Shown: positions 4,217 to 60,874 of the stretch, one piece after another
Position numbering within the stretch: position 1 is the first letter of the stretch
Layout of the letters: every line of letters begins with the position of its first letter
Source of the DNA: Gammaproteobacteria bacterium
GTDB lineage: Bacteria; Pseudomonadota; Gammaproteobacteria; GCA-2400775
Reading direction: 5' to 3'
Assembly (NCBI GenBank): GCA_013151045.1
Contig: JAADIY010000028.1
Coordinates: forward strand, 8,335 to 72,334
Length of the DNA stretch: 64,000 nucleotides
Program-made: the position numbers and the translations under genes
Notes under the pieces: generated by a model
What the model was told of the DNA's origin: nothing
Seen by the model: the letters and a program-made list of their open reading frames with translations, nothing else
Databases searched by the model: none

Positions 4217-5425
4217 ATGAGATTTTGCACTATAAGCGTATTCGTACTATTGACGAATATCACCTTTGCGCAAAGTTATAACTACCCACCCAAAAATTCC
4301 TATTTTGCTACGGCTATTAGCACACCCAGTGAGCTAAAATATCCGGCCAAATGAAATTAGCTATCCCAATATCAAAAAACTCCAGCTCTATCCTGACAGA
4401 AAAGTCTCACCTATATTTTGGCATGGCAATAAACATCGTGTAGGCATGAACACCCAAGGTTGGAAAAAACCTGTGCCATTAATTTTTTTGCTATCTGGTA
4501 CCGGTTCAAACTTTGAATCAGACAAAACTCATTTTCTACGCAATCTCTTTTATCAATCAGGCTTTCATGTCATCAGCCTATCCTCGCCAACAAGCGATGA
4601 ATTTGTTACCTCTGCTTCTCGCTCATCGAGGCCTGGTTTTGTCAGCGATGATGCAGAAGCATCTATATCACTTTATGCAGCAGGCCTATGCCAGCGTTGA
4701 AAACAAAATTAGCGTCAGTGAGTTCTATATTGCCGGTTTCAGCATAGGTGCTATGCCTGCCGCCTTTCTCGACGAACTCGATTCTCGCCGACAGCAATTT
4801 TGCTTTAACAAAATAATGATGATTAATCCGCCTGTACGACTTTATGATTCTGCGCAGCGGATTAACCAGTTTTTGGAACGCAATCTTTCCAATGGAATCG
4901 AAAATGTAGGCGTTTTTGCTGAAAGCATTTTTAATCGCTACCCCCCTATTTTTAACCAAAGTTGGTGGCAACGAAATTGACAGTGAGTTTCTGTTTACGC
5001 TGGAGAAACGTTTATTACTGACCGCTGAAGAACTAGAAATTATCATTGGCTTAGCCTTTCGTCTGACGGCTAGCAGTATGACCTTCGCTTTGGATACAAT
5101 GAATCGCTCTGGTTATGTCGTTCACCCAGGTGAGTGATTAACAACTGGCAATACATTAACCGGCCACTTCAAACAATCTCTACATTGGGGCTTTACTGAT
5201 CACTTCGATCGCATATTGTCCCCCTATGTTCAGCAATCAGATCCCAGTATAACTATTGACTCACTTAAGCAACCACTCAGCTTGGAGTCGATTAAAAACT
5301 ATTTAGCCTCGACTAAAACCATTGCTGCCATGACAAACTCTGATGACTTCATTATCAATCAAGCAGATTTGAAGTTTCTTACCAATACGCTTAACGGTTT
5401 ACCCATATGGCGGGCATGGCGGTAA
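4217..5425 (+). pseudogene. alpha/beta-hydrolase-like lipoprotein/secreted protein, disrupted
   Basis: Signal-peptide ORF (MRFCTISVFVLLTNITFAQS) stops at 4352. The reading continues in other frames (4353-4700, 4513-4980, 4916-5137, 5138-5425) and includes a GFSIG nucleophile-elbow motif. There are at least 3 frame changes near short homopolymers (4349, about 4635, the CCCCCCC run at 4945) plus an in-frame TGA at 5135-5137. Confidence 0.5.
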
Positions 5426-6599: not shown

Positions 6600-7115
6600 A
6601 TGTCTTCTACTGATCATGATCGGCGCCTTATTGCTTTTCTATTAGGCTCAGCATTCTTTTTGTTTATTGGCACAACCCATGGTGTCGTCCAAGTATTGCC
6701 TGGCATACGTGACTGGTTAGTATCAGTTGGAACGCCGGTCAGCGGGCCCGGCCATATGATTGATCCACTTGCGCATGCGCATATCAACTTAGTCGGTGGC
6801 ATGGTGCTGATAAGCATGGCAATGACCTATTATCTATTCCCGCGTATTGCTGGCTGCCAAATTTGGTCTGGTAAATTAATTAGTCATTCTTTTTGGTGGA
6901 CTGCAGCTGGAGTTGTCGGCTTTTACACAACACTCATGGTATTTGGCATCACTGAAGGCCGCTTGATGCGTGCTGGTGAGCTAGAACAACAAGCCGCCGT
7001 GCATACCTACTACGGCATGACCATTAGCGTGCCAGCAACCATTATGGCCATTGGTTTTTGGATGTTTTTTATTAACATCTTCGCAACCGCACGTATTTAT
7101 TTTAAGAACCGCTAA
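6600..7115 (+). CDS. membrane protein resembling the C-terminal helices of heme-copper oxidase subunit I (CcoN-like fragment paralog)
   Basis: 171 aa, 4-5 TM; HAHINLVGG ... YYLFPR motif parallels the HAHLALLGF ... YYGL heme-ligand region of the full CcoN-like gene at 17939-19345; paralog at 21321-21860. Confidence 0.5.
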   Translation: MSSTDHDRRLIAFLLGSAFFLFIGTTHGVVQVLPGIRDWLVSVGTPVSGPGHMIDPLAHAHINLVGGMVLISMAMTYYLFPRIAGCQIWSGKLISHSFWWTAAGVVGFYTTLMVFGITEGRLMRAGELEQQAAVHTYYGMTISVPATIMAIGFWMFFINIFATARIYFKNR

Positions 7116-8346: not shown

Positions 8347-8791
8347 CGCTATCTTTGCTTACTTTTGAGCTCTCATCAGCATCAGTCTTACTAGAGTTCA
8401 TACCAAACATACTGATCATGGCATAGATAAAACCACCTGAGATAGCGATATATACCAAAGCTAATCCAAAACCCCAATTAAACCATTCTCTTTCGAAACC
8501 TTCACGATCACCCCAGAATGGAAAGCTTAAGAATATCGCGAACAACAATACAGCAATAATCACCGCTACAAACCATTTTGGTATAGCAACTTGAGACTCG
8601 GAAACCTTATCAACCATTTCCCAGTCTTCTAAACCACGCTTAGCCAAACGCTCCTCTTCTGAAGCGTAGCCATAAAAATCATCTGATTTCTTACCCCACT
8701 CTTGCTCAATCGACTCTAAAGGCACCTGTTTGCCCGCTGATTCATCTGGTTCAGCAGACTCGACATTGCTCTCTTGCTTATTAGTAACCAT
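8321..8791 (-). CDS. membrane protein, FixH-like by position (downstream of FixG-like gene)
   Basis: 156 aa with 2 TM and acidic termini; start overlaps the FixG-like stop. Confidence 0.4.
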   Translation of the reverse strand: MVTNKQESNVESAEPDESAGKQVPLESIEQEWGKKSDDFYGYASEEERLAKRGLEDWEMVDKVSESQVAIPKWFVAVIIAVLLFAIFLSFPFWGDREGFEREWFNWGFGLALVYIAISGGFIYAMISMFGMNSSKTDADESSKVSKDSDGDQSKGK

Positions 8792-10101
8792 TATTTTTCC
8801 ACCGCTACGTGATGAACCCGAAAACTACGTCGCCAGCCATCTGTTGATTCTACTTTAACTAAAAATGGATATAAACCAGGTTCTAAATCATGACTGATAT
8901 TGAATTTGACATATTTTCTCTCAGCCGTATCAAATGACGCTATCGTTGACTGAAAACGGTATGCATCTTCATCCAAGCCCTCTATAGAGACTGAAACCTC
9001 AGCGGGCTGATAAAGCTTATGTGAAAGCGAAACACGAAATTCATTTTCATTTCGCCCTTGCGCTGTCTGTGTATCATAAACCGAGAACCGGTAAGGCTCA
9101 TAGTTGACCATGCCCCAACTAAACATACCAACACCTAGTGTTACCAATGGAAGGATCCAAAAGAAACGTGACCGTAGCGCCATCATCGCATTGCGTGGTT
9201 GTTCTTTTTTAACCTGACGTTCTCCCATCGCAAAACTCAACAAACTAGCCCCCATTTTACGTGACCCGCGAATGCTCTCACATGCTGTAATGCATTCGCC
9301 ACAATTAATACATGCATCATAAGTCTGCGTCTTTCGTGGGTCTATCTCAACAAAGCAAGACGTCTGACAAAAATTACAGCGCGCGCACTCATCAGCAGCC
9401 GATGTATCGTGAACAATATGTAATGTCTCTTTGGTCTTAAATGAATGCTGCCATACTTTATATACGCACATAAAACGACAAAAAAAATGTCGTAGGTAGG
9501 CAACATCAACAAATATAATTAATACACAAATACCATAAATATAATATTCCGAACCGTTCATTCCATCAGCTGATTGAAATGTAACAAAATCAAAAAGAGT
9601 ATCTAGTGGATAAAAATAAAGCATCGGGATAAAACCAGCCACCATAGAGAAACCTAGCAATATCGCACCCAAACCCAACCAGTTTACGATTTTATTTTTA
9701 CCTGACGATACTTTCATTGGCGCACCATCAAGCATCACCTCTGAATTCTTACCAAGCAGACGCCGATGCCAATAGTTAGCCCATTCAGACATAGTATTTT
9801 GTGGGCAAGACCATCCGCAAAATGCCGTCCCTAAAGCTGAATACGTAATAATTAAAGCGCTCGACACCATCAACCAAAAACCCATGATAATGAAAAAGTC
9901 ACCAAAATCAATTTGCCGATCTAGCACCACAAAGGCACCCGCTAAGATATCGATACGGAAAAAGCCTAAAACAGGAATCAATATTGCCACCAACACAGTA
10001 ATTGCTTGCAACAGTCTCCTGCGTCGGTGTATTTTTTGTCCTGGGCTATTACTATTGACAGCAATAATTGGGATATCAGAAAGAGAAGATGACTGACTCA
10101 T
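8791..10101 (-). CDS. ccoG: FixG/CcoG-like membrane-bound 4Fe-4S ferredoxin (cbb3 oxidase assembly / cupric reductase family)
   Basis: 436 aa; N-terminal TM helices; two CxxCxxCxxxC motifs (CARCNFCQTSC, CINCGECITAC); C-terminal Ig-like periplasmic domain. Confidence 0.75.
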   Translation of the reverse strand: MSQSSSLSDIPIIAVNSNSPGQKIHRRRRLLQAITVLVAILIPVLGFFRIDILAGAFVVLDRQIDFGDFFIIMGFWLMVSSALIITYSALGTAFCGWSCPQNTMSEWANYWHRRLLGKNSEVMLDGAPMKVSSGKNKIVNWLGLGAILLGFSMVAGFIPMLYFYPLDTLFDFVTFQSADGMNGSEYYIYGICVLIIFVDVAYLRHFFCRFMCVYKVWQHSFKTKETLHIVHDTSAADECARCNFCQTSCFVEIDPRKTQTYDACINCGECITACESIRGSRKMGASLLSFAMGERQVKKEQPRNAMMALRSRFFWILPLVTLGVGMFSWGMVNYEPYRFSVYDTQTAQGRNENEFRVSLSHKLYQPAEVSVSIEGLDEDAYRFQSTIASFDTAERKYVKFNISHDLEPGLYPFLVKVESTDGWRRSFRVHHVAVEK

Positions 10102-12737
10102 AACTGTTGCACTCGCTCATTAAGCAATAAATTGGTAATAGGTCGCGCCTGATAAAGTGGACTAACACTTTTTAACTTGGCAATATATTTTTTAATAGCC
10201 TCATCATCATTATTTTTCTGAGCGATACCTAACAGAGCTTCTAAGGTTAATAGGTGATCAGGCTTAATCAATAAAATTTTCTCTAAGCTAGCTTGTTTAA
10301 CTTTTGGCGTAATACCCACACGAGACAAAGATGCCAACATCTTGTCTGCAAGAGTTCCGCTAATCCATTGATCCTTCGGGTTGCCTCTGTAAGCAAATTG
10401 TAGGAAACGCTGCGCTCGGGCCTCATCACCACTTAGTTGAGCCAACCAACTACGCATCGATGCATCGGCAGCAATATAGGCTCGCTCAAAAAGCTCTGCT
10501 TCATTCTTATTCACCTGCAAATGTTGAGCTGCGAGTTCTGCGCTAGGCCTTTGTTTGATTAACCACTCTAGCACTTCTTGAAAATTTATTTCCCCAGCGT
10601 AGCGTACGCGAGGGAGGTGATATTCTATCTGTGGCCGCCATTCATCTTCAATTAATTTGGCGGGGCTTTTAATACGACCAATATAACGACCTAACCAAGT
10701 CCATACACCCTCACCTCCTGTTTGTTTCGCATTAGATTCTAGCACTTTGATATTTTTCAATAGTCGACCAGCATCAACGGTAACACCAGGGCTACCCACC
10801 ATCGCCAACCTAAAACCATCAACAAATAATGCGGCACCAGGGAAGCTATGCTCAAACGTGTTCAATACAATTTGCAAAGCAGTTAAATCAAATTGATTAA
10901 GAGCCAACCATTGCACATAAAGACCATCTTGATTTAAGCGTGATTTAACACGATCAAATTGTTGTTGCGATAACAAACGACTACGACCAACTAAATCGGG
11001 ATGGAATAGATCCCCGACAATGACATCGTAATATTCATTAGAACGCATTAAATAACGGCGCGCGTCATCATTAATAATAGTAATCTTATTACTAATATCT
11101 CTATTGCTTTGAGCAAACCATTTATCAGCAGACTCTATTGCGCCTTTTGATATTTCAACAGCAGTAATATCCACATCAAAGTCTAAGGCTGCTGATGCTG
11201 AAATTCCAGTGCCCAAACCAAGAAACAATACTTTTTCTGCATCGGGGTTTAATAACAAGGGTAAGCGTGCTTGGTTCTTCTGAGCGACAACTGCCGTGGG
11301 CTCAGTTGAAGCGTCCATACGTTGCAGGTCTGATAACAGTAAACGCTGCCCCCGCTGCGTTTCGACAACATGGGTAGTCGCTATTGCATCTTCGTGTAGC
11401 GACAATACAGATTGGCTATTGGCATGAGCGACAGGAAGCAGCTCTGTAACCGTTGGCAGGTCCGGCAAGAAAAAAAGAGTGCTTGCGAGTATGGGTGATA
11501 CTAGCCAAAATAACCTCGCTTTACACCAGCGCATACCGGCAACAAATAAGATGATTGCTGCTATTAATATAGTTAGCGGGGTACCGACTGTAGGCATTAA
11601 TACAAATCCTGCCAACAAAGCACCAAAGCCAGCACCAATGGCATTAACACCGTAGAACCAAGCGCCTGCACTACTGGGGTCTTCATAACCTCGAACGAGT
11701 AAAGGCAACCATGCGCCTAAGCAAAAGGTCACGACAACCGTCACCATAGCTAAAGCAACACCCTGCTTTATTAGCGCGTTGATTAAAGAGCTGTACTCAA
11801 TTGTTTCGGCCCATGCCGATACGGATGCCAAGCTAATCAAAGAAATTATCGCTGCTAACGCTGCCGTGACAGGCAACAGATTCAACCAGAGTCGTCTCGC
11901 CCCCCATTGTGATAAAACACTGCCACATGCTGTGCCGGCCAGGAATATCGCTATTATTATAGCTAGTACATATTCGGTACGAAGTAAGGCCATACCGTAG
12001 AGTCTAGCCCATGCGACTTGTAGCATCAGTGCGGCTGCACCGATCAAGGCATAGCTTAGTAAATCTAAGACAGCCGGTTTTACTGAAAAGTTCCTACTAA
12101 CACTCTGCTTTAGGGGTGATTTTATGGCGATCAAAAAAAATAAAAGGCCTGTTATCGCACCTAATAGTGCAATGGTATATAAACTATTCGCCCAACCTAA
12201 TACTGGCAACAACAATACCGGCACTAACGCACCAAATGCTGCGCCCAAGGTATTGGCCGCATAGAGATGGGAAACCGTAAGCTGTGTGTCTTTTATCGCG
12301 GCAAGAACAAGTGGAAAGCCTAAGCCCATCGCCGTCGCTGGCAATAACATAAAAAATAGTGCCGCAACGAGCTCAATGCTATGCCATGCTGACAACTGGA
12401 TATCACTAGTCGCCGTGATTAAAAATTCTGACCAATATTGATTTATCGAAGGTAGCCCTACAGCATAAAGCGCTACCAATATTTCAATTAAGGCTAGGAC
12501 CATCAAAGGTCTCGCTAGGTGTAATAAATACCGTTTACCAAGAATACTACCTAGGCCTAGACCAAACATGAAAGCGCTAACTGTAATGACGACGCCAAAG
12601 TTACTGACGCCAAACTGTAGACTTAACATGCGCATCCATAGCACTTCGTAGGCTAGTGCTACGAGGCCAGAAATACCGTAGAGGATGAGCAATAGAAAGA
12701 TGAGAGGTGTTTTATCTGACCTTATCATGGTCATCAA
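10098..12737 (-). CDS. fused MFS-type membrane domain / spermidine-synthase-like (SAM-dependent aminopropyltransferase fold) / TPR protein
   Basis: 879 aa; about 12 TM N-terminal; central domain with GLGTGISA and VIVGDLFHPD spermidine-synthase motifs; C-terminal TPR-like repeats. Confidence 0.7.
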   Translation of the reverse strand: MMTMIRSDKTPLIFLLLILYGISGLVALAYEVLWMRMLSLQFGVSNFGVVITVSAFMFGLGLGSILGKRYLLHLARPLMVLALIEILVALYAVGLPSINQYWSEFLITATSDIQLSAWHSIELVAALFFMLLPATAMGLGFPLVLAAIKDTQLTVSHLYAANTLGAAFGALVPVLLLPVLGWANSLYTIALLGAITGLLFFLIAIKSPLKQSVSRNFSVKPAVLDLLSYALIGAAALMLQVAWARLYGMALLRTEYVLAIIIAIFLAGTACGSVLSQWGARRLWLNLLPVTAALAAIISLISLASVSAWAETIEYSSLINALIKQGVALAMVTVVVTFCLGAWLPLLVRGYEDPSSAGAWFYGVNAIGAGFGALLAGFVLMPTVGTPLTILIAAIILFVAGMRWCKARLFWLVSPILASTLFFLPDLPTVTELLPVAHANSQSVLSLHEDAIATTHVVETQRGQRLLLSDLQRMDASTEPTAVVAQKNQARLPLLLNPDAEKVLFLGLGTGISASAALDFDVDITAVEISKGAIESADKWFAQSNRDISNKITIINDDARRYLMRSNEYYDVIVGDLFHPDLVGRSRLLSQQQFDRVKSRLNQDGLYVQWLALNQFDLTALQIVLNTFEHSFPGAALFVDGFRLAMVGSPGVTVDAGRLLKNIKVLESNAKQTGGEGVWTWLGRYIGRIKSPAKLIEDEWRPQIEYHLPRVRYAGEINFQEVLEWLIKQRPSAELAAQHLQVNKNEAELFERAYIAADASMRSWLAQLSGDEARAQRFLQFAYRGNPKDQWISGTLADKMLASLSRVGITPKVKQASLEKILLIKPDHLLTLEALLGIAQKNNDDEAIKKYIAKLKSVSPLYQARPITNLLLNERVQQL

Positions 12738-12743
12738 CCATGC

Positions 12744-13106
12744 CTAAAACGGAAAAAACCAGACTACCGCAGCTACGCCATGAGCTAGCGCTAAAGTAAC
12801 TGTTAAACCCGCACTAATCATATGCCACATAAAAACTTGCTTACCATAAATCGCCATACTGATACCTAATATGGCAGTGGTCAGCACTAACACTAATAAC
12901 GTACTTCCCATAATAAAGAGAATGGTATGCTTTTCTTCTGTACTAATCGCGCGCGGTCCAAGATCAATTTCTTTATCCGTAAATTCAGTGATCACATCCA
13001 TAGCATTATCAGCTGACGCCGCGGTATCCGCTGATGCAAAAACAATATTACTCAACAGCAATGTGACAAGAACAATCGCAACAAGATAATAAGAGCGCAA
13101 TAACAT
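12744..13106 (-). CDS. small membrane protein
   Basis: 120 aa, 3 TM; operon-packed. Confidence 0.4.
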   Translation of the reverse strand: MLLRSYYLVAIVLVTLLLSNIVFASADTAASADNAMDVITEFTDKEIDLGPRAISTEEKHTILFIMGSTLLVLVLTTAILGISMAIYGKQVFMWHMISAGLTVTLALAHGVAAVVWFFPF

Positions 13107-13111
13107 AATAT

Positions 13112-13351
13112 TTATTCTGATTCTGATTCAGCTACTGTTTTATTTTTTTGCTTATAACGCTGCAGCGCAAAATACCAATACAGTATAGCCATGACAACAA
13201 ACGGCGCCAGCACCAAAAAACAAAGGAAAATAAAAATTGCCCACGGCGTTTCTATAGTGACATGAAAAAAACTGTAGCTATCAAGACCCGCTTGTGCGGA
13301 TAACGGCAACAGCAATAAAAGATATACATAAATAGTTCTAAAATAAAACAT
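13112..13351 (-). CDS. small membrane protein
   Basis: 79 aa, 2 TM; start 3 bp from the upstream stop. Confidence 0.4.
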   Translation of the reverse strand: MFYFRTIYVYLLLLLPLSAQAGLDSYSFFHVTIETPWAIFIFLCFLVLAPFVVMAILYWYFALQRYKQKNKTVAESESE

Positions 13352-13353
13352 AA

Positions 13354-14424
13354 CTAACCTTTTTCATCGGCAATATTTTTACTACAACGAAACCCGTAAA
13401 AATCAGACGCATAATGTGGAAAGGAATAATTTCGGTGATAAGCGGACGTTGCAAACGGATCGCTTTTAAATGATCCACCGCGCATCACAACATAAGTTGC
13501 TTCAACTTCAACTAAGTCGACCACTTTCAAAGATTTATCTAATGTTGTTGTCGCTCTACCTACTTTCGGTATAAACAACTCAGCCTGCGCATCAGCACCT
13601 TGATATGCTACAAACTCATCTGCTGTCCATTCACTAACATTACCTGCCATATCATGAACACCATATGGGCTTTTACCCGTCGGATAACGAGTGACATCGG
13701 TTGCCGAACCAACACTATAGTAGGTATTAAGATTGTCAGCGTCCATCAAATTACCCCATGGCCAACGACGACCATCTTCACCCCGTGCAGCTTTTTCCCA
13801 TTCCGCCTCTCGCGGTAAGCGTGCATCGACCCACTGACAATATCCTGCTGCGTCATACCAGGAAACCATGGTAACCGGTGCCAATAAATCCCCCGGCCTC
13901 ATTCGCCCACCACTCCAGTGTAATGGCGGTCTATGTTTAGTATCCGCAACGAAACGCGCATATTCTGCATTAGTTACCGGATACTTTCTAATCTCATAGG
14001 CGTCAGTGCTAGCTCTATGTGCTGGCTTGTCTTGATCATTCGCTAGATGGCGATCAGTGCCCATTATAAACTCGCCTGCTGGAATTTCTATCCAAGCACC
14101 GAGCTCTGACCACATATCGGGGGTTAATAACTCTTCCGCCTGCTCAATACTATAAGTAGTTTGAACAGTTTTTAATGCCTCGTTATGTTGATGCCGAATA
14201 ATATCCTCACCCGCAGCTCGAATTCGAGACTCCATTTCAGAGATATCGTAAGTTGCACTCGCACGCATTTGATCGATACGACTGCCACCTAGCTGGACAA
14301 GATGATAAAACGCGAAAACAATTGCAGCGGCAGCACACGTCACCAGTGTTGCTGCTAAAAAAACCTTTCGCTTCGCGCGCTCCATGCCATCAATTTGAGG
14401 AGTTTGTGTAAACTTTTTGGCCAT
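13354..14424 (-). CDS. FGE-sulfatase family protein (formylglycine-generating-enzyme / SUMF1 / NirV-like), membrane anchored
   Basis: 356 aa; N-terminal TM; FGE motifs (YEIRKYPVTNAEYARF, GYCQWVDARLPREAEWEKAARG, RGGSF, HRNYSFP). Confidence 0.7.
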   Translation of the reverse strand: MAKKFTQTPQIDGMERAKRKVFLAATLVTCAAAAIVFAFYHLVQLGGSRIDQMRASATYDISEMESRIRAAGEDIIRHQHNEALKTVQTTYSIEQAEELLTPDMWSELGAWIEIPAGEFIMGTDRHLANDQDKPAHRASTDAYEIRKYPVTNAEYARFVADTKHRPPLHWSGGRMRPGDLLAPVTMVSWYDAAGYCQWVDARLPREAEWEKAARGEDGRRWPWGNLMDADNLNTYYSVGSATDVTRYPTGKSPYGVHDMAGNVSEWTADEFVAYQGADAQAELFIPKVGRATTTLDKSLKVVDLVEVEATYVVMRGGSFKSDPFATSAYHRNYSFPHYASDFYGFRCSKNIADEKG

Positions 14425-14429
14425 ACAAT

Positions 14430-14903
14430 CTAGCGGCCCAATTTAGACGGTGCTTTTTCGTCCTTGTGACCAGTGTGACGTGGCATACGACCGTAAGTTT
14501 TTTTCACCCACAATTCACCTAGTATTCCACCGACAGCTGATGCTTCAATTGCGACAATAATGATGAAACCCATATAACCTATCGGCAGCAAACGCATATC
14601 TTCTGGCATCACACTTACCCCAGTAGAGGTGCTAAAATATTGAAACAGATAAACCATTAGCGCAGGAAAATAACAAAGAACCTTGCCACCGAGACCATAA
14701 ATTAACGATACGGTAACACCGCCAATAAATGGCGTTAACACCAAACCGATAAATAAACTTGGGTGAAAATAAGAAGTTAAATCTTGAAACAACTCAAGAC
14801 GCACGCCAAACAGCAGATTGAGTGTATACATTACAACTGCACCAGATAAGATCGCAAATAAGGCCCACTTTAGCGCCTCTAGCTTATTGCTGATCTTTAT
14901 CAT
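14430..14903 (-). CDS. polytopic membrane protein, hypothetical
   Basis: 157 aa, 4 TM. Confidence 0.45.
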   Translation of the reverse strand: MIKISNKLEALKWALFAILSGAVVMYTLNLLFGVRLELFQDLTSYFHPSLFIGLVLTPFIGGVTVSLIYGLGGKVLCYFPALMVYLFQYFSTSTGVSVMPEDMRLLPIGYMGFIIIVAIEASAVGGILGELWVKKTYGRMPRHTGHKDEKAPSKLGR

Positions 14904-15393
14904 CTGATTCAGGCCACTTATTACCGGTTAATTTTTTATATTCCAGTTTCTTAAGGTCTTCTAAATACCAATCTTCCACTTTTAGGCTAGCCATATACGC
15001 AGCTAGGGTCCTTCTATCTTCTTCAGGGAGATGCGCGTAAGACGGCATACTCCATTCCGCTTTCAAACGCCCTTTCAATATCTGCTGAGGGTCTTCAGAA
15101 GAAAAATAATCAAATAACCAATCTTCTGACCGTAATGATCCAATTCCATCTAATATTGGAGCCGGAACCGTAGCCATAATATTTTTAATTGTCCAAAGCG
15201 AATGACACTTCTTACAATTTTGTTCTTTGTAAATGACATCACTCGCTATAGTCAGCTCTTTTGTAGCAGTACTATAAAATGGAATCGACTTCTCTTGATC
15301 TGGTGTCTGAGAAAAACCTATATAATTACGCACCATTAGGCCAACTATGAGAAGCCCCATACCACCTAATATCAACTTTTCCCCGGTACGCAT
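14884..15393 (-). CDS. mono-heme c-type cytochrome, membrane anchored
   Basis: 169 aa; N-terminal TM; CKKCH motif. Confidence 0.6.
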   Translation of the reverse strand: MRTGEKLILGGMGLLIVGLMVRNYIGFSQTPDQEKSIPFYSTATKELTIASDVIYKEQNCKKCHSLWTIKNIMATVPAPILDGIGSLRSEDWLFDYFSSEDPQQILKGRLKAEWSMPSYAHLPEEDRRTLAAYMASLKVEDWYLEDLKKLEYKKLTGNKWPESDDKDQQ

Positions 15394-15405
15394 GCAGCTC
15401 TACCC

Positions 15406-15690
15406 TTATGCGCTTTCTTGAGCTTGGCGCGCTTTAGCTTTTTCAGCTAACAACTCTGCACGGCGCGATTCTTGCGCAGCATTAACTTCTTGAAACTTGG
15501 CAAACTCTTCTGGGCTCATTTTATCTTTGTCATTTTCGTCAAAGACCAAGTATTTTATATCTTCATCAAACTGCTCATTCTTATACGCCCAGCGTATACC
15601 GATTATCGCTGCGATAATAATTCCGCCTGCTGCGACCATCCACAAATATATTGTCCAACCATCAGGTAGGGATTGCATAAATTCAGTCAT
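15406..15690 (-). CDS. small single-TM protein with charged C-terminal tail (CcoQ/FixQ-like by architecture only)
   Basis: 94 aa. Confidence 0.35.
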   Translation of the reverse strand: MTEFMQSLPDGWTIYLWMVAAGGIIIAAIIGIRWAYKNEQFDEDIKYLVFDENDKDKMSPEEFAKFQEVNAAQESRRAELLAEKAKARQAQESA

Positions 15691-15699
15691 CGTACTCTC

Positions 15700-16002
15700 C
15701 TAAATAAGCTGTCCAAACAGTAATTGTGCTGCACCATAAATTACCGCACAAATCAGCCCAAAAATCAGCCAAGCAAATAATACCACTTCGCCCTTACGCA
15801 TGCCTTTTTCGCCCTTACGCTTGCCATCTTTATAAGCGTCGCGTGCAAATTTATAAACCACCACTGTAAATAAAATAATAATACCGGCCATCATAAAGAA
15901 AAAGATGCCGATGCTATATTCCTGTGATTTAAGTCCCTCGATGGTGAACTGATCCAGCTCTTCATCTGAGAGAATTATGGCGTTGTTATCGGTATTATTC
16001 AT
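15700..16002 (-). CDS. small 2-TM membrane protein
   Basis: 100 aa. Confidence 0.4.
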   Translation of the reverse strand: MNNTDNNAIILSDEELDQFTIEGLKSQEYSIGIFFFMMAGIIILFTVVVYKFARDAYKDGKRKGEKGMRKGEVVLFAWLIFGLICAVIYGAAQLLFGQLI

Positions 16003-16060
16003 TCTGGTCTACGAACACTAACACAGATATAGACCATGCTAGGTAGGGAAAGGTTTAACA

Positions 16061-16104
16061 TTTTTGAGAAAAAATGCCGCTCAAGAGAGCGGCATTTTAT
16101 TTCC
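16061..16104. terminator. bidirectional rho-independent terminator splitting the cluster into two operons
   Basis: 12-bp perfect stem aaaatgccgctc / gagcggcatttt with loop aaga; A-run on one side and T-run on the other. Confidence 0.55.
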
Positions 16105-16130
16105 ATAAATACGCCGTATGGCGATTTACT

Positions 16131-16247
16131 TCATTGCTTATCTGACTTATCGAAATTATCAATCATAAAGCTGTAAATGTAAGGTGCTACAAATACAACC
16201 AAAATAGGTATAAGCAGTATTAATGGTGGATTATCTAATTCAATCAT
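16131..16247 (-). CDS. small single-TM membrane peptide (38 aa), below ORF-track cutoff
   Basis: MIELDNPPLILLIPILVVFVAPYIYSFMIDNFDKSDKQ; AGGTGA-like RBS; similar to the 6382-6504 peptide; followed by the terminator. Confidence 0.45.
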   Translation of the reverse strand: MIELDNPPLILLIPILVVFVAPYIYSFMIDNFDKSDKQ

Positions 16248-16272
16248 TTTATTTCACCTATATTGGATCAGC

Positions 16273-16917
16273 TTAGTGGCCAATTGAATGGTCTGGTTCC
16301 CAATCTGAAGGGGGCAAACGCTTCACTGTAATCATAACAGCAATACAAAAGTAAATAACGTAGAAAATATCGATGGTATAGCCAATATCCCACGAAGGTT
16401 GAACCCGAATTTTCACACCATCATCACGGTATTCGCCTTCAAAGTTAGCTAACGCTACATCTTTACCAACAATCGTGTAGTAGTCCATATCAGCATTTTC
16501 GCGCTGTAATTCAACAATTTGATCTTTGACAAGACGCAAATCATTCATTGTTAAAGGATGACGATCCTGATGGCCTGCCCAATCAGAGCCTTGAGACTTA
16601 ACTGTGTCAACAATATAAGCCATCTTATCTTCATCGTTATCAAGTGCTGCAACTTCTGGAGTATCCATCAGAGCAATATACTCTTCATAGATAATAGCCA
16701 TAGGGCGTTGACCCCACAAAGGTGCTGTTACCAAAAACGCTGTAATAATTGTCAGCATCAACAACCACACCACTGCCTGTGGCAAGCGATTATTGTCTTC
16801 CATAATGCCACCCAGACTCTCGTGCTCCCAAACATGTCTTGCATGCTCGTTCTGATCGCTGGTTGCTAACGTATATAGTGGTTTATCGTATTTCCAAGCC
16901 ATTTGGCTATCCTCCAA
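16273..16917 (-). CDS. 2-TM membrane protein with acidic periplasmic/cytoplasmic domain, hypothetical (occupies the CcoP position but has no heme motif)
   Basis: 214 aa. Confidence 0.45.
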   Translation of the reverse strand: MEDSQMAWKYDKPLYTLATSDQNEHARHVWEHESLGGIMEDNNRLPQAVVWLLMLTIITAFLVTAPLWGQRPMAIIYEEYIALMDTPEVAALDNDEDKMAYIVDTVKSQGSDWAGHQDRHPLTMNDLRLVKDQIVELQRENADMDYYTIVGKDVALANFEGEYRDDGVKIRVQPSWDIGYTIDIFYVIYFCIAVMITVKRLPPSDWEPDHSIGH

Positions 16918-16928
16918 GGAAAACTAAA

Positions 16929-17877
16929 TTACTTCAAACTCAAGACATAATCCATCAAGTAACGGATTTCGCTGTTAGGCGCATAATCAGGTACCAATGG
17001 TGGATAAAGACTCTTGCCTGCAGCGTACTCTTTATAATCAGCACGCCATTGATCAAAGTCAATCTCGTTACCGTTAGCATCAACTTCGCCCCATAAATAA
17101 TCGAAGCGAGGCATAATTGAATGCGGCTGAACTAATCTTGGATTGAAAAAATGCATCATCATCCATTCTTTCGATGAGTTACGCGAACCAACATGCAATA
17201 AATCAGGAGCCTTACGATCAGAACCAAACGCGGTTGGAGCCTCACCATTAAAATCACCTAGACGCGGCGGCAAACCAAAATATTGCCAATCCTGAGTTTG
17301 CTCAGGAAGCAGCGTATGACACCTCGCAGCCTTCACGTACGAACATCGTTTTACCGCTACCAACGTGACGCTTATCAGTATCCGCGGCTGAGGCTAATAC
17401 TGCCGCAGCAGTCCAATCACGAGTCGCGCTAGCATTTTCAATATAGGGGAAGGTTTCACCTTCGTAATCACCACGCGACACCAAGAATACTGCGCCTTCA
17501 TCTGAAGTCGCAACACCAACTTGACCATCATCAGCACTTAATGCTGCGACCTCAGTACCAAGGATACCCGGATTACGAACCGCACTAGGAAACGGGGTTC
17601 CCGGCACATAGACATAAGCGTCAACCGGATCAATATCAGCACCTGTGACAGGATCTTTCTTGATAGTAACAGTTAAAGGCTTACCTTTCCCTTGTAGGAA
17701 CGGATCCTCGTAGGAAAAACCTGAGTTATGGCCATAAGACAAACCTTTAACCAAACCTGTTTCAGTCACGCCAACACTATAAATAGTTAAGCTAGGCATA
17801 TATAAGGTGATCATCATTGAACCACCTAATGCGATACCAAACATGCGGGTACCAATTTTATACTCTCTAAAAGCCAT
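16929..17877 (-). CDS. CcoO/FixO-like (NorC-like) mono-heme subunit with long N-terminal insertion; frame break inside the heme-binding motif
   Basis: Upstream frame ends ...TMFVREGC EVSYAAS*; the downstream frame continues ARCHTLLPEQ ... APDLLHVGSRNSSKEWMMMHFFNPRLVQPHSIMPRFDYLW, colinear with the CcoO stretches REGCYNCHSQMIRPF and [38 protein letters not shown]. Only 4 nt lie between the two Cys codons. Confidence 0.55.
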
Positions 17878-17938: not shown

Positions 17939-19345
17939 TTAACGTTCGTATGCGATCTCATGTGGCAAACGACCTACTGGCACTGGCGTACCTGCACGTG
18001 CTGTCATCCACATGTTATAGAGCCAAACAACGTTACCAGTAAATACCATCGTACCGCCGACCCAACGAGCAATCATATAAGGATGCTCTGCAATAACCAC
18101 GTCGATATAAGGCACTTCGTAGATCTTCGCCGCACCCTGAATCAAACCAGCAATAGTGATTGAGATCCAGTAGGTTGCAAAACCAATCAATAAGAACCAG
18201 AAGTGGAAATTAGCTAGCGCCAATGAGTACAGCTTACGACGCAAGATCGTTTGTAGGCCGTAGTACACAGCAGCAGCTTCTAGGAAAGTAGAGAAACCTA
18301 GCAAGGCCAAATGAGCATGAGCCACAATCCAACCAGTACCATGTACATACCAGTTAATGGCACGCGTTTGCTGGAAACCACCCTGCATATTTAGCGGGAT
18401 AGCTAACATAACACCCGTAATGGTAAAACGAATTTCGATGTTATCAACAAAGTAATGCCATTTACCGGTCATGGTAAGGAGCAGGTTAGATACAAACGCA
18501 ATCGCTGGCACCAAAATCAACACACCCTCAACAGAGGCGAAAGATTTTAGCCACTCAGGCAATGGTGATGACATCAAATGATGCGCTGCTGGTGTTGAGT
18601 AAAATACAACCACTGACCAGAAATGCAAGTGACCAATACGATGAGAGTACAGTGGATTACCGGTAATCTTCGGCACCGTATAATAGGCAATCGCCGCTGC
18701 CACCGGGGTAATCCACAAGCCAAGAATGTTATGGGCGTGCCACCAGGTCAAATAGGCTTCTGTCAAACCGGTCAGAGAAAAGTACTCCGGCAGGTTACCG
18801 ACCAGCACCACAATCATCAACATGAATATGGCCGAACCAAAAAACCAGTTGGTGGTGTAAATACCCTGCGTCTTACGATGAACGATGGTCATCCAGACAT
18901 TGATCCCCAATGGCAACAGCACTGCGAACAGGATAATCAGATCAATAGGCCATGGAAAGTCAGTGTACTCACGTCCGGAAGTAATACCGGCCCACATCAG
19001 GCACAAGGCAACAGAGAGACCAGCGTTCCAGTTAAAACAGGTCCAGATACCAAGCTTTTCAGACCAAAGTTTGGTATTACCCAAAGCAGGCGTGATGTAC
19101 ATAAAGGCCATGGCAAAGGCCATTGAGATCCAGCCGAAGATAACGGCCATGACGTGAACTTGGCGCATATGACCAAAGGCAAACATATAGCTACCGGTTA
19201 CAAAATCCGGGAAAGCGAGTTTTGCAGCATTAAAAGAACCCAAGGCAGTCCCAATAATAAACCAGATGATGGACGAAAACCCAAAAAAGACAGCCGCTGA
19301 ACCTGCGGGTATATCTTCGTTCTTCGCAAAAAGATACTTGAACAT
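17939..19345 (-). CDS. cbb3-type (C-family) heme-copper oxidase subunit I, CcoN-like, divergent
   Basis: 468 aa, 12 TM; conserved His ligand pattern (FGHMRQVH; WWHAHNILG; PAAHHLM; VAHAHLALLG) matches CcoN, not the NorB HLWVEG pattern. Confidence 0.8.
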   Translation of the reverse strand: MFKYLFAKNEDIPAGSAAVFFGFSSIIWFIIGTALGSFNAAKLAFPDFVTGSYMFAFGHMRQVHVMAVIFGWISMAFAMAFMYITPALGNTKLWSEKLGIWTCFNWNAGLSVALCLMWAGITSGREYTDFPWPIDLIILFAVLLPLGINVWMTIVHRKTQGIYTTNWFFGSAIFMLMIVVLVGNLPEYFSLTGLTEAYLTWWHAHNILGLWITPVAAAIAYYTVPKITGNPLYSHRIGHLHFWSVVVFYSTPAAHHLMSSPLPEWLKSFASVEGVLILVPAIAFVSNLLLTMTGKWHYFVDNIEIRFTITGVMLAIPLNMQGGFQQTRAINWYVHGTGWIVAHAHLALLGFSTFLEAAAVYYGLQTILRRKLYSLALANFHFWFLLIGFATYWISITIAGLIQGAAKIYEVPYIDVVIAEHPYMIARWVGGTMVFTGNVVWLYNMWMTARAGTPVPVGRLPHEIAYER

Positions 19346-19444
19346 GGGAACTGTGCTCCGTTTAAGACGTAAAACTTAATATTAAAATTATAAAATGCTT
19401 TTTTTGAATACGACCACATTACGCAGTCATAACTCGAACCTTTT

Positions 19445-19537
19445 TTAGTGCTTACCCGGCATCATCAGATACCAAGCGAACCACATACTTGAGAAGGCCA
19501 AAACAATACAAAATACAGTTGCGACAATAGTTATCAT
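19445..19537 (-). CDS. tiny membrane peptide (30 aa), possible
   Basis: MITIVATVFCIVLAFSSMWFAWYLMMPGKH with a GAGGGGAG RBS, immediately upstream of the CcoN-like gene. Confidence 0.3.
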   Translation of the reverse strand: MITIVATVFCIVLAFSSMWFAWYLMMPGKH

Positions 19538-21320: not shown

Positions 21321-21860
21321 TTAAGCGCTGCTAGGAACATCTTTTTCCCAACCAACACAGCTGCGAAAAACGTTATAACCCCAGATACAATTTGCCAATA
21401 GCACCATAGAACCAAAAATTCCCATAGCCGCGAGCCAGGGCTTAATAACCGCTTCCACCTCACTAGGAGGCAAACTCACGCTAGCAGTTCCACCCAATAT
21501 GCCGGCAATGGTAAATAAACTCACCATACCGATCAAACCAATATTGTGTATCCAGAAATGCACTTTAACCAGCTTCAAACTATAAATCGGTCGTTTCACC
21601 AAACGCGGCACAAAATAATAGACCGCAGCAAAAATCGCCATTTCCACCCAACCCAATAAATTAACATGGGTATGAGCACGCACTATCAACTGACCATGAG
21701 CACGGTGATCGACAAAGTGGCGTAGCTCGGCGATGCCGCCCATCAAAGCACCCCAAGAAAAGCCAATGATGCTATAAATGATACAAGCGTAGAGAAACAA
21801 TAAGGTATAGCGTGTGTACTCTACGTCGTCCTCCCAAGGAGCATTGTTCGAAACACTCAT
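21321..21860 (-). CDS. membrane protein resembling the C-terminal helices of heme-copper oxidase subunit I (paralog of 6600-7115)
   Basis: 179 aa; RAHTHVNLLGWVEMAIFAAVYYFVPR motif; start ATG overlaps the stop of the upstream cytochrome c (ATGA). Confidence 0.5.
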   Translation of the reverse strand: MSVSNNAPWEDDVEYTRYTLLFLYACIIYSIIGFSWGALMGGIAELRHFVDHRAHGQLIVRAHTHVNLLGWVEMAIFAAVYYFVPRLVKRPIYSLKLVKVHFWIHNIGLIGMVSLFTIAGILGGTASVSLPPSEVEAVIKPWLAAMGIFGSMVLLANCIWGYNVFRSCVGWEKDVPSSA

Positions 21861-22497
21861 TGCTCAGCATCCGGACCTTGGCCAACACCACCTGTAGGCG
21901 CAGAGGTATCACCACTAAAATCTTTGGTACGGATATCTTGATACTTATCCTTCCAGCTTTCGGGCGCCCAAATGCTCAACATACTGTCGATGAAAACCGA
22001 TTCCCCTTTAGGCGGAATAGGTGAAGTCGAAGCACCCTGCTGAGAACGCAGCTCTGATAAGAACGTTGCAACGGCATAGAGCTTATCTTCGCCAAGCTCA
22101 GCAACATAAGCCGCTTCTTTACCTAAACCATGATCAATCGTCGCCGCATGATAAGTTTCTTTATAAATTGGCTCGGGATCGCTTAAAAAGCTCCCCAGCC
22201 ATTCATGACTACGGCGCGAACCAATCCAATACCATCAAGCGTTGTTTGACCGCCCATACTCGTGCCCGACAAAAAAGCACGATGACAAGAACTACATCCA
22301 TTACCCTTAAAAATTCGATGGCCTAAGTTACCATTTTCAGATAGGTCAAAACTCGTTAGATTCGAAAAAATCTGTTTCTTAGTAGTCAATCGATAACCTT
22401 CAAGCGCCACATAGCCTACTAATGCAACCACTATAAAAATCCCGGCGATGCCAAATAATACTTTTTCGCCACGCTTTAGACTAGATTTTGCCGCCAT
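21857..22497 (-). CDS. membrane-anchored mono-heme c-type cytochrome, two apparent homopolymer frameshifts
   Basis: N-terminal TM plus CSSCH in the 22183-22497 ORF; the sequence continues in two other frames (DPEPIYKETYHAATIDHGLGKEAAYVAELG ... then ESVFIDSMLSIWAPESWKDKYQDIRTKDF ... DAEQ*); shifts sit at the A5/C4 runs at 22185-22197 and the C5 run at 22003-22007. Confidence 0.5.
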
Positions 22498-25320: not shown

Positions 25321-26141
25321 CTAGCGCTGACACTGACCACAATAAACCGTCGCACGCTGACCTAAACGTACCAACTTGAGTGTTGCACCGCAAGACTGAC
25401 AAGGCTGTCCGTCACGACCGTAGACTTTGTGCTCAAAAGCAAAATAACCTGGCTTACCATCGCTGTTAACAAAATCACGTAATGTCGAGCCACCACTCTC
25501 GATTGCCGCCTGTAACACACGTTTTATTTCAACCGCCAAAACGTCATAACGCTTTAATGAAATGCGCCCTGCTGCACGCAGAGGATGAATGCCTGCCATA
25601 AATAACGCTTCATTGGCATAAATATTACCAACCCCTGCCACAACACCCCTATCCATAATTACATTCTTCACCTCACAGCCGTATTGCGACCGCGCGAACG
25701 ATGGTGCAAATGATACCCATCAAACTCGTCTGATAAAGGTTCTGGACCGATTTTTTTAAGCAAAGCATGCTCAGGTTCATCACTGCGTAACCACAACACA
25801 CTGCCAAAACGCCGCGGATCGTGCAGCCTTAAACAACCACCGTTTTTTAATAACACATCAACATGATCATGTTTATTCGGCGATTTCGTTTCATTCAGAT
25901 AACGTAAACTCCCTGACATGCCAAGATGAATCATCATCGACCCGACGGTACTTTGCAGGAGCAAATATTTTCCTCGACGCACAACCTCGTCAATAGTTTG
26001 CCCAGCAAACTCAAGCTCCAAACTTTTAGGCACACCATAGCGAAGCTTATAATTACGCACAACAACCTCAGCCACACGCTGACCTTGAATATGTGGCGCA
26101 ATACCACGTCGTGTCGTCTCAACTTCAGGCAACTCTGGCAT
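25321..26141 (-). CDS. mutM: formamidopyrimidine-DNA glycosylase, apparent single-base frameshift
   Basis: N-terminal [12 protein letters not shown] in ORF 25668-26141; C-terminal zinc finger (CQSCG ... CGQCQ) and H2TH domain in ORF 25321-25671; the junction near 25668-25676 is repaired by one extra G. Confidence 0.75.
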
Positions 26142-58297: not shown

Positions 58298-59152
58298 ATG
58301 AGTACACACCCCATTATCATCAGCGGCAATCTAAACGATTCCACTCTAGAAACAATCAAACAAAAAATTGGTGGTGTAATACAAGAACAGAAAGACTTGC
58401 TTATTATAAATGTCGATACTTCGATACCGAAGCAAAAGCTAATCGAACTACGCAACACGTTAAGCGAAGAATACCAAATTGATATCAACCAACTCCCTGA
58501 GACATTCGACCCAAGCAAAATAGGGCTGGTGCTCAGCGATATGGACTCCACTTTTATCGCCATAGAGTGCATCGATGAAATCGCTGACTTCGCCAACATC
58601 AAACCACAAATTTCCGAAATCACCGAATTAGCCATGCACGGCGAAATCGATTTCGAAACCTCACTTAAAAAACGCGTCGGCCTACTCGCCAACCTCGACA
58701 CCAGCGCACTCGAACGTGTTTACAAAGAACGCCTAAAACTCAACCCAGGTGCCGCAGACCTAGTCAAAGGCCTACACGAAAATTCGATCCCCTTCGCATT
58801 AGTCTCCGGTGGCTTCACCTACTTCACCGAGAAACTCAAAGCCGAATACCAACTCGACTTCATTAAAGCCAACACTTTAGAAGTCATCGACAACAAACTC
58901 AGTGGCAAAGTATTAGGCGAAATCGTCGACGCACAAACCAAAGCCCATTATTTAGAAGAACTCTGCCAAACTCTCGGCATACAAACTAACCAAGTTATTT
59001 GCATGGGTGATGGTGCGAACGACTTATTGATGATGGAGAAAGCAGGCTTAAGTGTTGGCTATTGCGCGAAGCCGATTGTTCAGGAAAAGGCCGATATTGT
59101 AATTAATCATTCCGGATTAAACGTATTATTGGATCTAGCAATAGCACCCTAA
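58298..59152 (+). CDS. serB: phosphoserine phosphatase
   Basis: HAD motif LSDMDSTFI plus GDGANDL. Confidence 0.85.
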   Translation: MSTHPIIISGNLNDSTLETIKQKIGGVIQEQKDLLIINVDTSIPKQKLIELRNTLSEEYQIDINQLPETFDPSKIGLVLSDMDSTFIAIECIDEIADFANIKPQISEITELAMHGEIDFETSLKKRVGLLANLDTSALERVYKERLKLNPGAADLVKGLHENSIPFALVSGGFTYFTEKLKAEYQLDFIKANTLEVIDNKLSGKVLGEIVDAQTKAHYLEELCQTLGIQTNQVICMGDGANDLLMMEKAGLSVGYCAKPIVQEKADIVINHSGLNVLLDLAIAP

Positions 59153-59676
59153 GCCTTATTGATTCCTTTTAAGTAGAAGTGTCTGCCCTAGCGCCCTAAA
59201 GACATCTCATTAAGTCCATATTATAAAAAACTCGTATATAGTCTTCTAAATTAGCCGACACTTTACTGTGTTAAGGTATTTATTTTTAATAGCCACACTG
59301 GCATATTTAGTATCTTGGTTTTCTGTATTAGCGATTGCTTATCAATTGCTATAAAACATTCTCTGAATATCTGATCCCTTAATTATGATTATCGTGAATT
59401 TAAAGGGATAAGTTCTTTTGAATACTTGAGTGTAGGACGCTATGCGAAGTCAACTTCTCAAGGAACTGGAGGATACTCTAACCAAGTATTTCGAGTTAGG
59501 TTTGGTATTGGACTGAATTTTATTTTTCTAGTTTTTCTTTATTATTGTTTTCCGCCTTCTTGGCGAGTTATTTTTTTTACGCAAAAAGTAACCAAAAGTC
59601 TTACTCCCACACAGAAGCCGCTGAAAAGGTCGCGAAAAACCAAAGAGTACTAAAGTTCTAATACCCTAAAAATCAA

Positions 59677-60255
59677 TCAATCCATCCAATTGAAGAACAC
59701 ATCGAATATGCGAAATGGGTTTTCCCCAAGATTTGTTTCAATTTGCGTTTCAAATGTTAACTTTCTTTTTGCTACAGCTTCGGGAAGAACATAAAAACCT
59801 GCATTTTTTAATGCATTCAAAATATGAGTTTCACCATTCTCCACCAAAATACGCGGCAACTTATATAGACTGGCCGGATGGAGAAAGCCACTCGAACCGG
59901 AACTACCTTTCTTCGTTTTTTTTGTGGCTCCATATATAGCCAGCGGCGCTGAATATGATAACCAAAGACTTACACCGCTAATTTCTTGCCCAACCTGCTT
60001 CTTTGTTACAATCGTTGATCCATTACTTGGGTAAATAAATAAATCAAGATATGACACCCAACCACTACCATATGAATCTATCAACTCTACTGTTAGTGAT
60101 TGTCTCTCCTTAAGATAATTGGCAACCTCATATAGTCTAGCTCTTCCTGTCGGAGCAAACTTTTCTCTCCATGGTGGCTTATCACCAATCGACTTACCAT
60201 CTATTACTCGACGTAAGTTTTGTTCTGTAATAAGTTGTTCAATCAAGTCCGTCAT
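59677..60255 (-). CDS. hypothetical protein in AT-rich islet
   Basis: 192 aa ORF with no recognised domain; flanked by AT-rich non-coding DNA and repeats. Confidence 0.4.
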   Translation of the reverse strand: MTDLIEQLITEQNLRRVIDGKSIGDKPPWREKFAPTGRARLYEVANYLKERQSLTVELIDSYGSGWVSYLDLFIYPSNGSTIVTKKQVGQEISGVSLWLSYSAPLAIYGATKKTKKGSSGSSGFLHPASLYKLPRILVENGETHILNALKNAGFYVLPEAVAKRKLTFETQIETNLGENPFRIFDVFFNWMD

Positions 60256-60350
60256 ACTTTCTACTTTTGTATATTAAAATTTCTACTGGCAAAGAATATT
60301 AACACCTCAAAGCATTCTCGAGTTTTTTGGTTTCGCGACCCTCTCAGCAG

Positions 60351-60446
60351 CCTCTATATCCTATTCAATATGCGATTAGAGTGAGGGCTGTCTGAACGAA
60401 TAAAATGAGTGAGTTCCGCAGCTCCGCATATTGAATAGGATATAGA
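60351..60446. repeat. 23-bp perfect inverted repeat with 50-nt spacer
   Basis: ctctatatcctattcaatatgcg (60351-60373) and its exact reverse complement (60424-60446); extra complementary outer bases (cagcagc / gctgctg). Confidence 0.6.
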
Positions 60447-60874
60447 GGTTACGCCTGGAAGGCGGCTGCTGTGTGTGGGAGCTGGGGTTTTGGTTACTTT
60501 TGACCCCAAAAGTAACTCGTCCAAAAAGGACGAAAAACAATGCAAAAAATATCACACTAAACCAGCAATTAACACTCGCTCCCCCTCAACCCACTTAACC
60601 CCAACCCTCTCACCCCCCTCAACCAAGCCAAGCACCGGCGCAGCCTCCTCCCCACATAAACCCCGCCAAAACCAACTCATTCCCCTCAGCACCATGACTC
60701 CACAATAAATCCAAACGCGCTATATCAACGACATACTCATCGTCATGAATATCAGACTGCGAAGTTAAGTAATCTGGAAAGGACCGAGAGATATCAATAA
60801 TATTGGGTGAGGTAAGAGCCTAACCTAACAATGATTCACAACCAAAAAATCGAAAAATCTTTTCACCTAGCTTG

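Follow-up and report, generated by a model that had tools for sequence, protein, structure and literature searches.

The oxidase genes and their neighborhood

The window, by which we mean the whole 64-kb stretch of DNA that was analyzed, encodes a cbb3-like terminal oxidase in which the gene for the heme c subunit is split between two reading frames within its heme-attachment motif. The features on which the following description is built are listed here by window position.

16929-17877 (-), ccoO-like gene for the predicted subunit II of a divergent cbb3-type oxidase; would encode 316 aa when intact, here divided between two reading frames
17302-17877 (-), upstream ORF of 191 aa with an ATG start; transmembrane anchor, periplasmic insert of ~135 aa and first Cys of the heme motif
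16929-17321 (-), downstream frame, opening with tgt cat (C-H) at the second Cys; codes for the complete cytochrome c domain with GSDRKAPDL and SIMPRF
17322-17325 (-), lesion, the 4 nt gagg; 6 nt, TGGTGG (Trp-Trp), in all relatives according to DNA alignments
17939-19345 (-), intact gene for a ccoN-like catalytic subunit of 468 aa; Pfam COX1 248 bits and an alignment to 3MK7_A
13354-16917 (-), rest of the operon downstream, all intact; 209-aa FixP_N-like protein, small membrane proteins, 169-aa cytochrome c, 157-aa protein and FGE-sulfatase/EgtB-like protein

A preliminary description, made from the letters alone, had called the split gene a CcoO-like heme subunit, and profile searches bear this out. 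The C-terminal fragment matches Pfam FixO (PF02433) at 47.5 bits, and the repaired protein and its sister protein score 63.4 and 62.6 bits (gathering cutoff 29.6); the neighboring CcoN-like COX1 gene is co-oriented and lies 61 nt upstream. Scores against the NCBIfam equivalogs of the canonical subunits fell short of their cutoffs, at 61.4 bits for ccoO (TIGR00781, cutoff 200.65) and 225.4 bits for ccoN (TIGR00780, cutoff 583.15). The closest solved relative of the CcoN-like protein is the cbb3 CcoN of Pseudomonas stutzeri (3MK7_A, E 2e-64), and their alignment conserves the six His ligands of low-spin heme b, heme b3 and CuB together with the cross-link Tyr of helix VII, in segments that include HVMAVIF, WWHAHN, FYSTPAAHH (with the helix-VII Tyr) and AHAH. 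As judged from these profiles and alignments, the pair is a divergent C-family (cbb3) heme-copper oxidase that falls outside the canonical CcoO clade, and the CcoO-like protein in its intact form would be a mono-heme c subunit II, predicted to bind heme and to pass electrons to CcoN.

Compared with the CcoO/FixO family (PF02433; 3MK7 chain B, 6XKW chain o, 9G83 chain u), the protein shares an N-terminal membrane anchor (a modeled helix at residues 2-34), a single heme c domain and a gene position directly downstream of ccoN. Its heme domain aligns with the solved chains (9g83_u, 3mk7_B) over REGCxxCH, GSxRxxPDL...G.R and SIMP. It differs from the family in length, with 316 aa in the intact form against about 200-240, and in carrying an extra periplasmic domain of ~135 aa between the anchor and the heme domain (residues ~60-170; window ~17370-17700, -). 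This insert is modeled with four strands and helices at pLDDT 89-96, and a Foldseek search of the PDB returned no significant match to it (best E ~1). The aligned solved chains also have CYVCH at the heme site, whereas the clade of the window gene has an invariant CWWCH; in the window itself the motif is out of frame.

Homologs of the CcoO-like protein are found in Gallionella, Sideroxydans, Zetaproteobacteria, Ca. Tenderia metagenome-assembled genomes (MAGs) and many uncultured Gammaproteobacteria. The locus resembles the 'distal' cbb3 subtree, for which a passage of PMC8788666 on Sideroxydans lithotrophicus ES-1 cites Ducluzeau et al. 2008, in being a divergent ccoNO pair with a different subunit complement in place of canonical ccoP/ccoQ, in having a CcoN with all C-family ligands and the helix-VII Tyr, and in the occurrence of CcoO-like homologs in Sideroxydans, Gallionella and Zetaproteobacteria. 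Judging from this taxon distribution and the sub-threshold profile scores, the pair probably belongs to that subtree.

The remaining genes of the 12-gene operon are intact and colinear with three related loci (L001, L161 and L162). In the same three loci the neighborhood downstream of the oxidase (8791-14424, -) is syntenic; it includes the FGE-sulfatase/EgtB-like protein (356 aa), an 879-aa MFS/spermidine-synthase-like fusion and a CcoG-like 4Fe-4S protein, and a literature search on cbb3 oxidases with a co-clustered FGE-like gene found no relevant link. Stand-alone genes for proteins of 171 and 179 aa flank the oxidase cluster on either side (6600-7115, +, and 21321-21860, -). Their match to the COX1 profile is confined to its final ~125 positions (helices IX-XII, with an HxH); both are conserved among relatives, and NCBI labels them 'cbb3-type subunit I'. 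The stretch 18500-19500 inside ccoN is 90-92% identical to the sister population described below, against ~96% elsewhere, and its identity to L001, a more distant relative, is raised, at 89%; dS of ccoN is 0.35, against ~0.13 elsewhere. On these alignments, the stretch looks like a patch of recombination inside the catalytic subunit gene.

The frame break and its orthologs

Read on the minus strand from 17345 to 17300, the sequence is cgt gaa ggc tgc gag gtg tca tac gct gct tcc TGA. The upstream frame ends ...FVREGCEVSYAAS (also written ...KTMFVREGCEVSYAAS) at a stop at 17304-17302; past the first Cys it runs through six out-of-frame codons into the TGA, and the stop comes eight codons past that Cys. 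One base further on, the other frame reads agg tgt cat acg ctg ctt cct gag caa, or RCHTLLPEQ (RCHTLLPEQTQDW...), and stays open for a further 130 codons, up to a stop at 16929-16931. At the break, the minus strand has tgc (17328-17326), gagg (17325-17322), tgt (17321-19) and cat (17318-16). Only 4 nt thus separate the two Cys codons, which stand in different frames; no in-frame CxxCH is encoded, and the 191-aa product contains one Cys and no His. The 31-mer across the lesion is CGTGAAGGCTGCGAGGTGTCATACGCTGCTT, and the predicted intact 33-mer is CGTGAAGGCTGCTGGTGGTGTCATACGCTGCTT. In placing the break inside the CxxCH codons, with gagg between tgc and tgt cat, and outside any homopolymer, the preliminary description was exact.

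The break is already present in the public deposit: JGI/IMG called the 191-aa N-terminal fragment as a gene on this contig of 95,225 bp. The NCBI proteins flanking the gene are numbered consecutively (NOX27508 and NOX27509), with none issued for ccoO between them. Because the flanking accessions are consecutive, we infer that PGAP handled the ccoO-like gene as a pseudogene.

A search of 5.8 billion proteins recovered 852 homologs of the CcoO-like protein, nearly all exactly 316 aa long, as the product of the window gene would be with two codons between those for Cys. REGCWWCH is in frame in each of the 169 orthologous loci retrieved from genome and metagenome collections, CWWCH is present in 40/40 aligned proteins, and every relative writes the heme site as TGY TGG TGG TGY CAY. 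The sister protein (P0213; MBL1292948.1, from a 'Thiotrichales bacterium' MAG) is 99.0% identical in amino acid sequence to the repaired window protein. DNA of this sister population was available as eight loci from at least five independent assemblies, with 95.6% nucleotide identity over 20,951 nt. All eight read GAA GGC TGT TGG TGG TGT CAT, against GAA GGC TGC -- GAG G TGT CAT in the window, a difference that amounts to TGGT>GA, or two nucleotides lost and one T>A. A metagenome scan for contigs of the same population gave a best match of 71% identity. Since all sister loci are intact at this site, the window allele is derived and lineage-specific, and the change is complex. The two-nucleotide deletion proposed earlier stands as to the number of nucleotides missing relative to the intact state, but the change is not a clean deletion. 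In relatives L001, L002 and L161, whose first Cys codon is TGC, the intact TGC TGG TGG contains GCTGGTGG, the Chi octamer of E. coli, which is probably a coincidence.

Relative to the sister population, ccoO shows 38 synonymous and four non-synonymous differences (omega 0.027), comparable values being 0.013 for CcoN and 0.014 for the downstream 209-aa protein. Across 59 genes compared with the sister genome, omega was mostly ~0.03-0.2, and none of them (0/59) carried a premature stop. Each half of ccoO, compared with relatives at 84-90% amino acid identity, gave an omega of 0.03-0.06, and TGGT>GA is the sole lesion in the gene. An old pseudogene under relaxed selection is ruled out by the dN/dS ratio and the single lesion. 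Because purifying selection has been strong and the rest of the operon is intact, the lesion is either extremely young or not biological.

Companion lesions and a common 12-mer

To place the break in context, indels were surveyed over ~57 kb of the window aligned to contigs of the sister population (L172, L162, L170 and L174). Only three out-of-frame indels were found in coding sequence, namely -2 in ccoO, +5 in a cytochrome c gene and +5 in mutM; all others were intergenic or a multiple of three in length. The sequences at the three sites are as follows.

17320-17331 (-), 12-mer GGCTGCGAGGTG made by the ccoO lesion; elsewhere found only at the mutM lesion
22221-22230 (-), cytochrome c lesion; ATTGG stands twice in perfect tandem (ATTGG|ATTGG), and this 5-nt duplication shifts the frame of a 211-aa gene (21857-22497)
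25669-25680 (-), mutM lesion, a 5-nt insertion TGTGA at 25677-25673 that frameshifts mutM (25321-26141) and creates GGCTGTGAGGTG

All three lie between 17.3 and 25.7 kb, that is, within 8.4 kb, a clustering that is mildly non-random by our own estimate (p~0.06). None is in a homopolymer, which corrects the earlier impression that the other frame breaks of the window fell in homopolymer runs; those in mutM and the 211-aa cytochrome c gene are 5-nt insertions outside such runs. The cytochrome c gene, which has a CSSCH and an LDGIGSRRS motif and for which no NCBI protein was issued, is unbroken in L161 and the sister genomes. mutM, encoding formamidopyrimidine-DNA glycosylase, is an intact 271-aa gene in the sister genomes, with the reference sequence ACGGC|GGTGAAG, and its insertion forms an imperfect tandem repeat, TGTGA/GGTGA. 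With omega values of 0.027, 0.169 and 0.050, ccoO, the cytochrome c gene and mutM all fall among the values of the intact genes.

The ccoO and mutM lesions yield the same 12-mer, GGCTGYGAGGTG (GGCTG[C/T]GAGGTG). Allowing up to one mismatch, it occurs twice in the 64-kb window, at these two lesions, against 0.44 occurrences expected, and the sister loci lack it at both sites. In a permutation in which three positions were drawn at random, a common junction-spanning segment arose in 13 of 3000 trials (p~0.004). Both lesions follow GGC, and the hexamer GAGGTG at both breaks resembles a Shine-Dalgarno sequence. No direct or inverted repeat that could have acted as a local donor, as in quasi-palindrome correction, was found within +/-1.5 kb. 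Because both lesions generate GGCTGYGAGGTG, the common 12-mer points to a common cause for them, as opposed to two independent random mutations.

A chimeric-assembly breakpoint was rejected, as phylogenetic affinity does not switch at any of the three lesions. An in-frame TAA in MlaA was set aside as a further lesion; reading through it adds no Pfam score, and NCBI accepted the 191-aa protein. At 4217-5425 (+), a hydrolase-like lipoprotein gene is spread over at least four frames with an in-frame TGA and has no Pfam match. In sister contig L172 the 5' end of this gene seems to be out of frame as well, and the gene is probably an old pseudogene common to the sister. Between a HAD-hydrolase gene and batD, a strain-specific island of 1.75 kb (59113-60862) takes the place of ~135 nt of the sister genomes; a 192-aa ORF within it (59677-60255, -) has no Pfam match.

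Origin and consequences of the break

We somewhat favor a technical origin, in which the ccoO lesion is an assembly or consensus error of the MAG contig, or a non-representative read variant taken up by the assembler. TGGT would have become GA in one MAG contig, so that the frame is left after the first Cys and soon meets a stop, and the contig would differ from the actual ccoO gene of the organism. This reading is favored because the lesion is assembly-specific, is evolutionarily instantaneous and has two look-alike companions within 8.4 kb, and because the sister alleles are intact, omega is normal and two of the lesions share a 12-mer. Indels introduced by metagenome assemblers are documented; their rate depends on the assembler and increases with the complexity of the community (PMC5502489). 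The break also resembles the frameshifted pseudogenes that PGAP flags in MAGs, in which a single out-of-frame indel interrupts an otherwise conserved gene, no NCBI protein accession is issued and, without reads, the lesion is indistinguishable from a consensus error. It differs from them in being a complex non-homopolymer delins whose derived 12-mer recurs at a second lesion 8.3 kb away. Complex non-homopolymer indels and perfect 5-nt tandem duplications are classical products of replication slippage in vivo and are not typical of Illumina base-calling errors, and genes of the ccoO, cytochrome c and mutM type are dispensable in many bacteria. These slippage-like lesion types, the tolerance of real mutation expected of dispensable genes and a clustering that is only mildly non-random all speak against an artefact.

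It is quite conceivable, if somewhat short of an even chance, that the lesion is a genuine and very recent loss of function, and the preliminary description's view that a real deletion knocking out heme c attachment is plausible keeps that standing. It had also held that orthologs with a continuous REGCxxCH frame would mean an assembly error; such orthologs were found at every locus retrieved, but in a MAG they do not by themselves prove one. On the account of a real mutation, the delins, which is 2 nt shorter than the original, destroyed CWWCH and left ccoO a fresh pseudogene and the oxidase non-functional in this lineage, with mutM and the cytochrome c gene inactivated at about the same time. 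The lesion does stand in the deposited contig, from which no NCBI protein was issued; the tandem duplication and the delins resemble products of slippage or template switching and do not look like homopolymer miscalls; the three affected genes are potentially dispensable; and gene decay does occur in the lineage, as in the clearly old and multiply broken hydrolase-like pseudogene. A real mutation is, however, harder to square with the absence of relaxed selection in all three genes and of nonsense mutations in the 59 genes compared, with an untouched remainder of a tightly conserved operon, with the eight intact loci of the sister population and with the finding that two of three supposedly independent changes make the same 12-mer. 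The last point would be accommodated if the ccoO and mutM lesions were real and linked, a microhomology-mediated template switch or short templated insertion, anchored on GGC...GGTG, having written GGCTGYGAGGTG into genes 8.3 kb apart. We consider this improbable; if true, a natural population of the deep sea or subseafloor would have lost, at nearly the same time, a glycosylase of DNA repair and the subunit through which electrons enter a high-affinity oxidase.

Two readings would preserve a working heme protein from the sequence as deposited, and both have been rejected. Programmed recoding, by a -2 shift giving C-E-R-C-H or a +1 shift giving C-E-C-H, with GAGGTG as the stimulating element, would yield a full-length product; a -2 shift at gag formally restores CxxCH spacing, and the Shine-Dalgarno-like hexamer, which is likewise found at the mutM break, recalls the sites of prfB (+1) and dnaX (-1). 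Unlike those sites, ggc ugc gag gug uca contains no slippery heptamer (X XXY YYZ) or homopolymer, shuffled versions of the downstream RNA fold just as well (z = -0.08), Rfam gives no match in 15-27 kb, and the break is absent from all 169 orthologs, including the 95.6%-identical sister; the invariant Trp-Trp would also be replaced. We know of no natural case of -2 frameshifting in bacteria, and with no slippery site, stimulatory structure or conserved break, we regard recoding as very improbable. An unusual heme motif, which the preliminary description had offered as an alternative, is harder still to credit. It would be either CxCH after a 1-nt correction, which, as that description noted, is no known heme-attachment motif, or CX7CH (C-SYVKAAR-CH), which the downstream ORF does contain when read from a TTG at 17363. 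That ORF lacks a signal peptide, a transmembrane anchor and a Shine-Dalgarno sequence, however, and its upstream Cys is an out-of-frame by-product. CWWCH is invariant in the 169 loci and the 40 aligned proteins, and none of the 169 orthologs has the altered spacing; this invariance and the missing export signal dispose of both forms of the motif.

The ccoO feature is thus an ordinary frameshift in a MAG and represents no new heme motif; the 12-mer common to two lesions is its only unusual element. The pattern of three similar frameshifts outside homopolymers in a span of 8.4 kb, with one 12-mer common to two of them, could serve to flag suspicious regions of MAGs. Attachment of heme c needs CxxCH in an exported polypeptide. 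Should the lesion be real, the 191-aa product would keep the membrane anchor and the insert domain and be unable to bind heme c, and the cytochrome domain would have no start codon, export signal or membrane anchor of its own; CcoN would be left without its electron-entry subunit, and the oxidase would therefore be inactive. Taken at face value, the break would suggest an organism without a working cbb3-type oxidase, and caution is warranted in such metabolic inference. Because the gene is intact and strongly conserved in sister genomes, conclusions about the metabolism of this MAG should not rest on the break. As a by-product, the comparison revealed an invariant CWWCH at 169 loci and an insert domain of ~135 aa, and the insert marks a divergent CcoO clade that ranges across sulfur- and iron-oxidizer-like Gammaproteobacteria, Gallionellaceae and Zetaproteobacteria.
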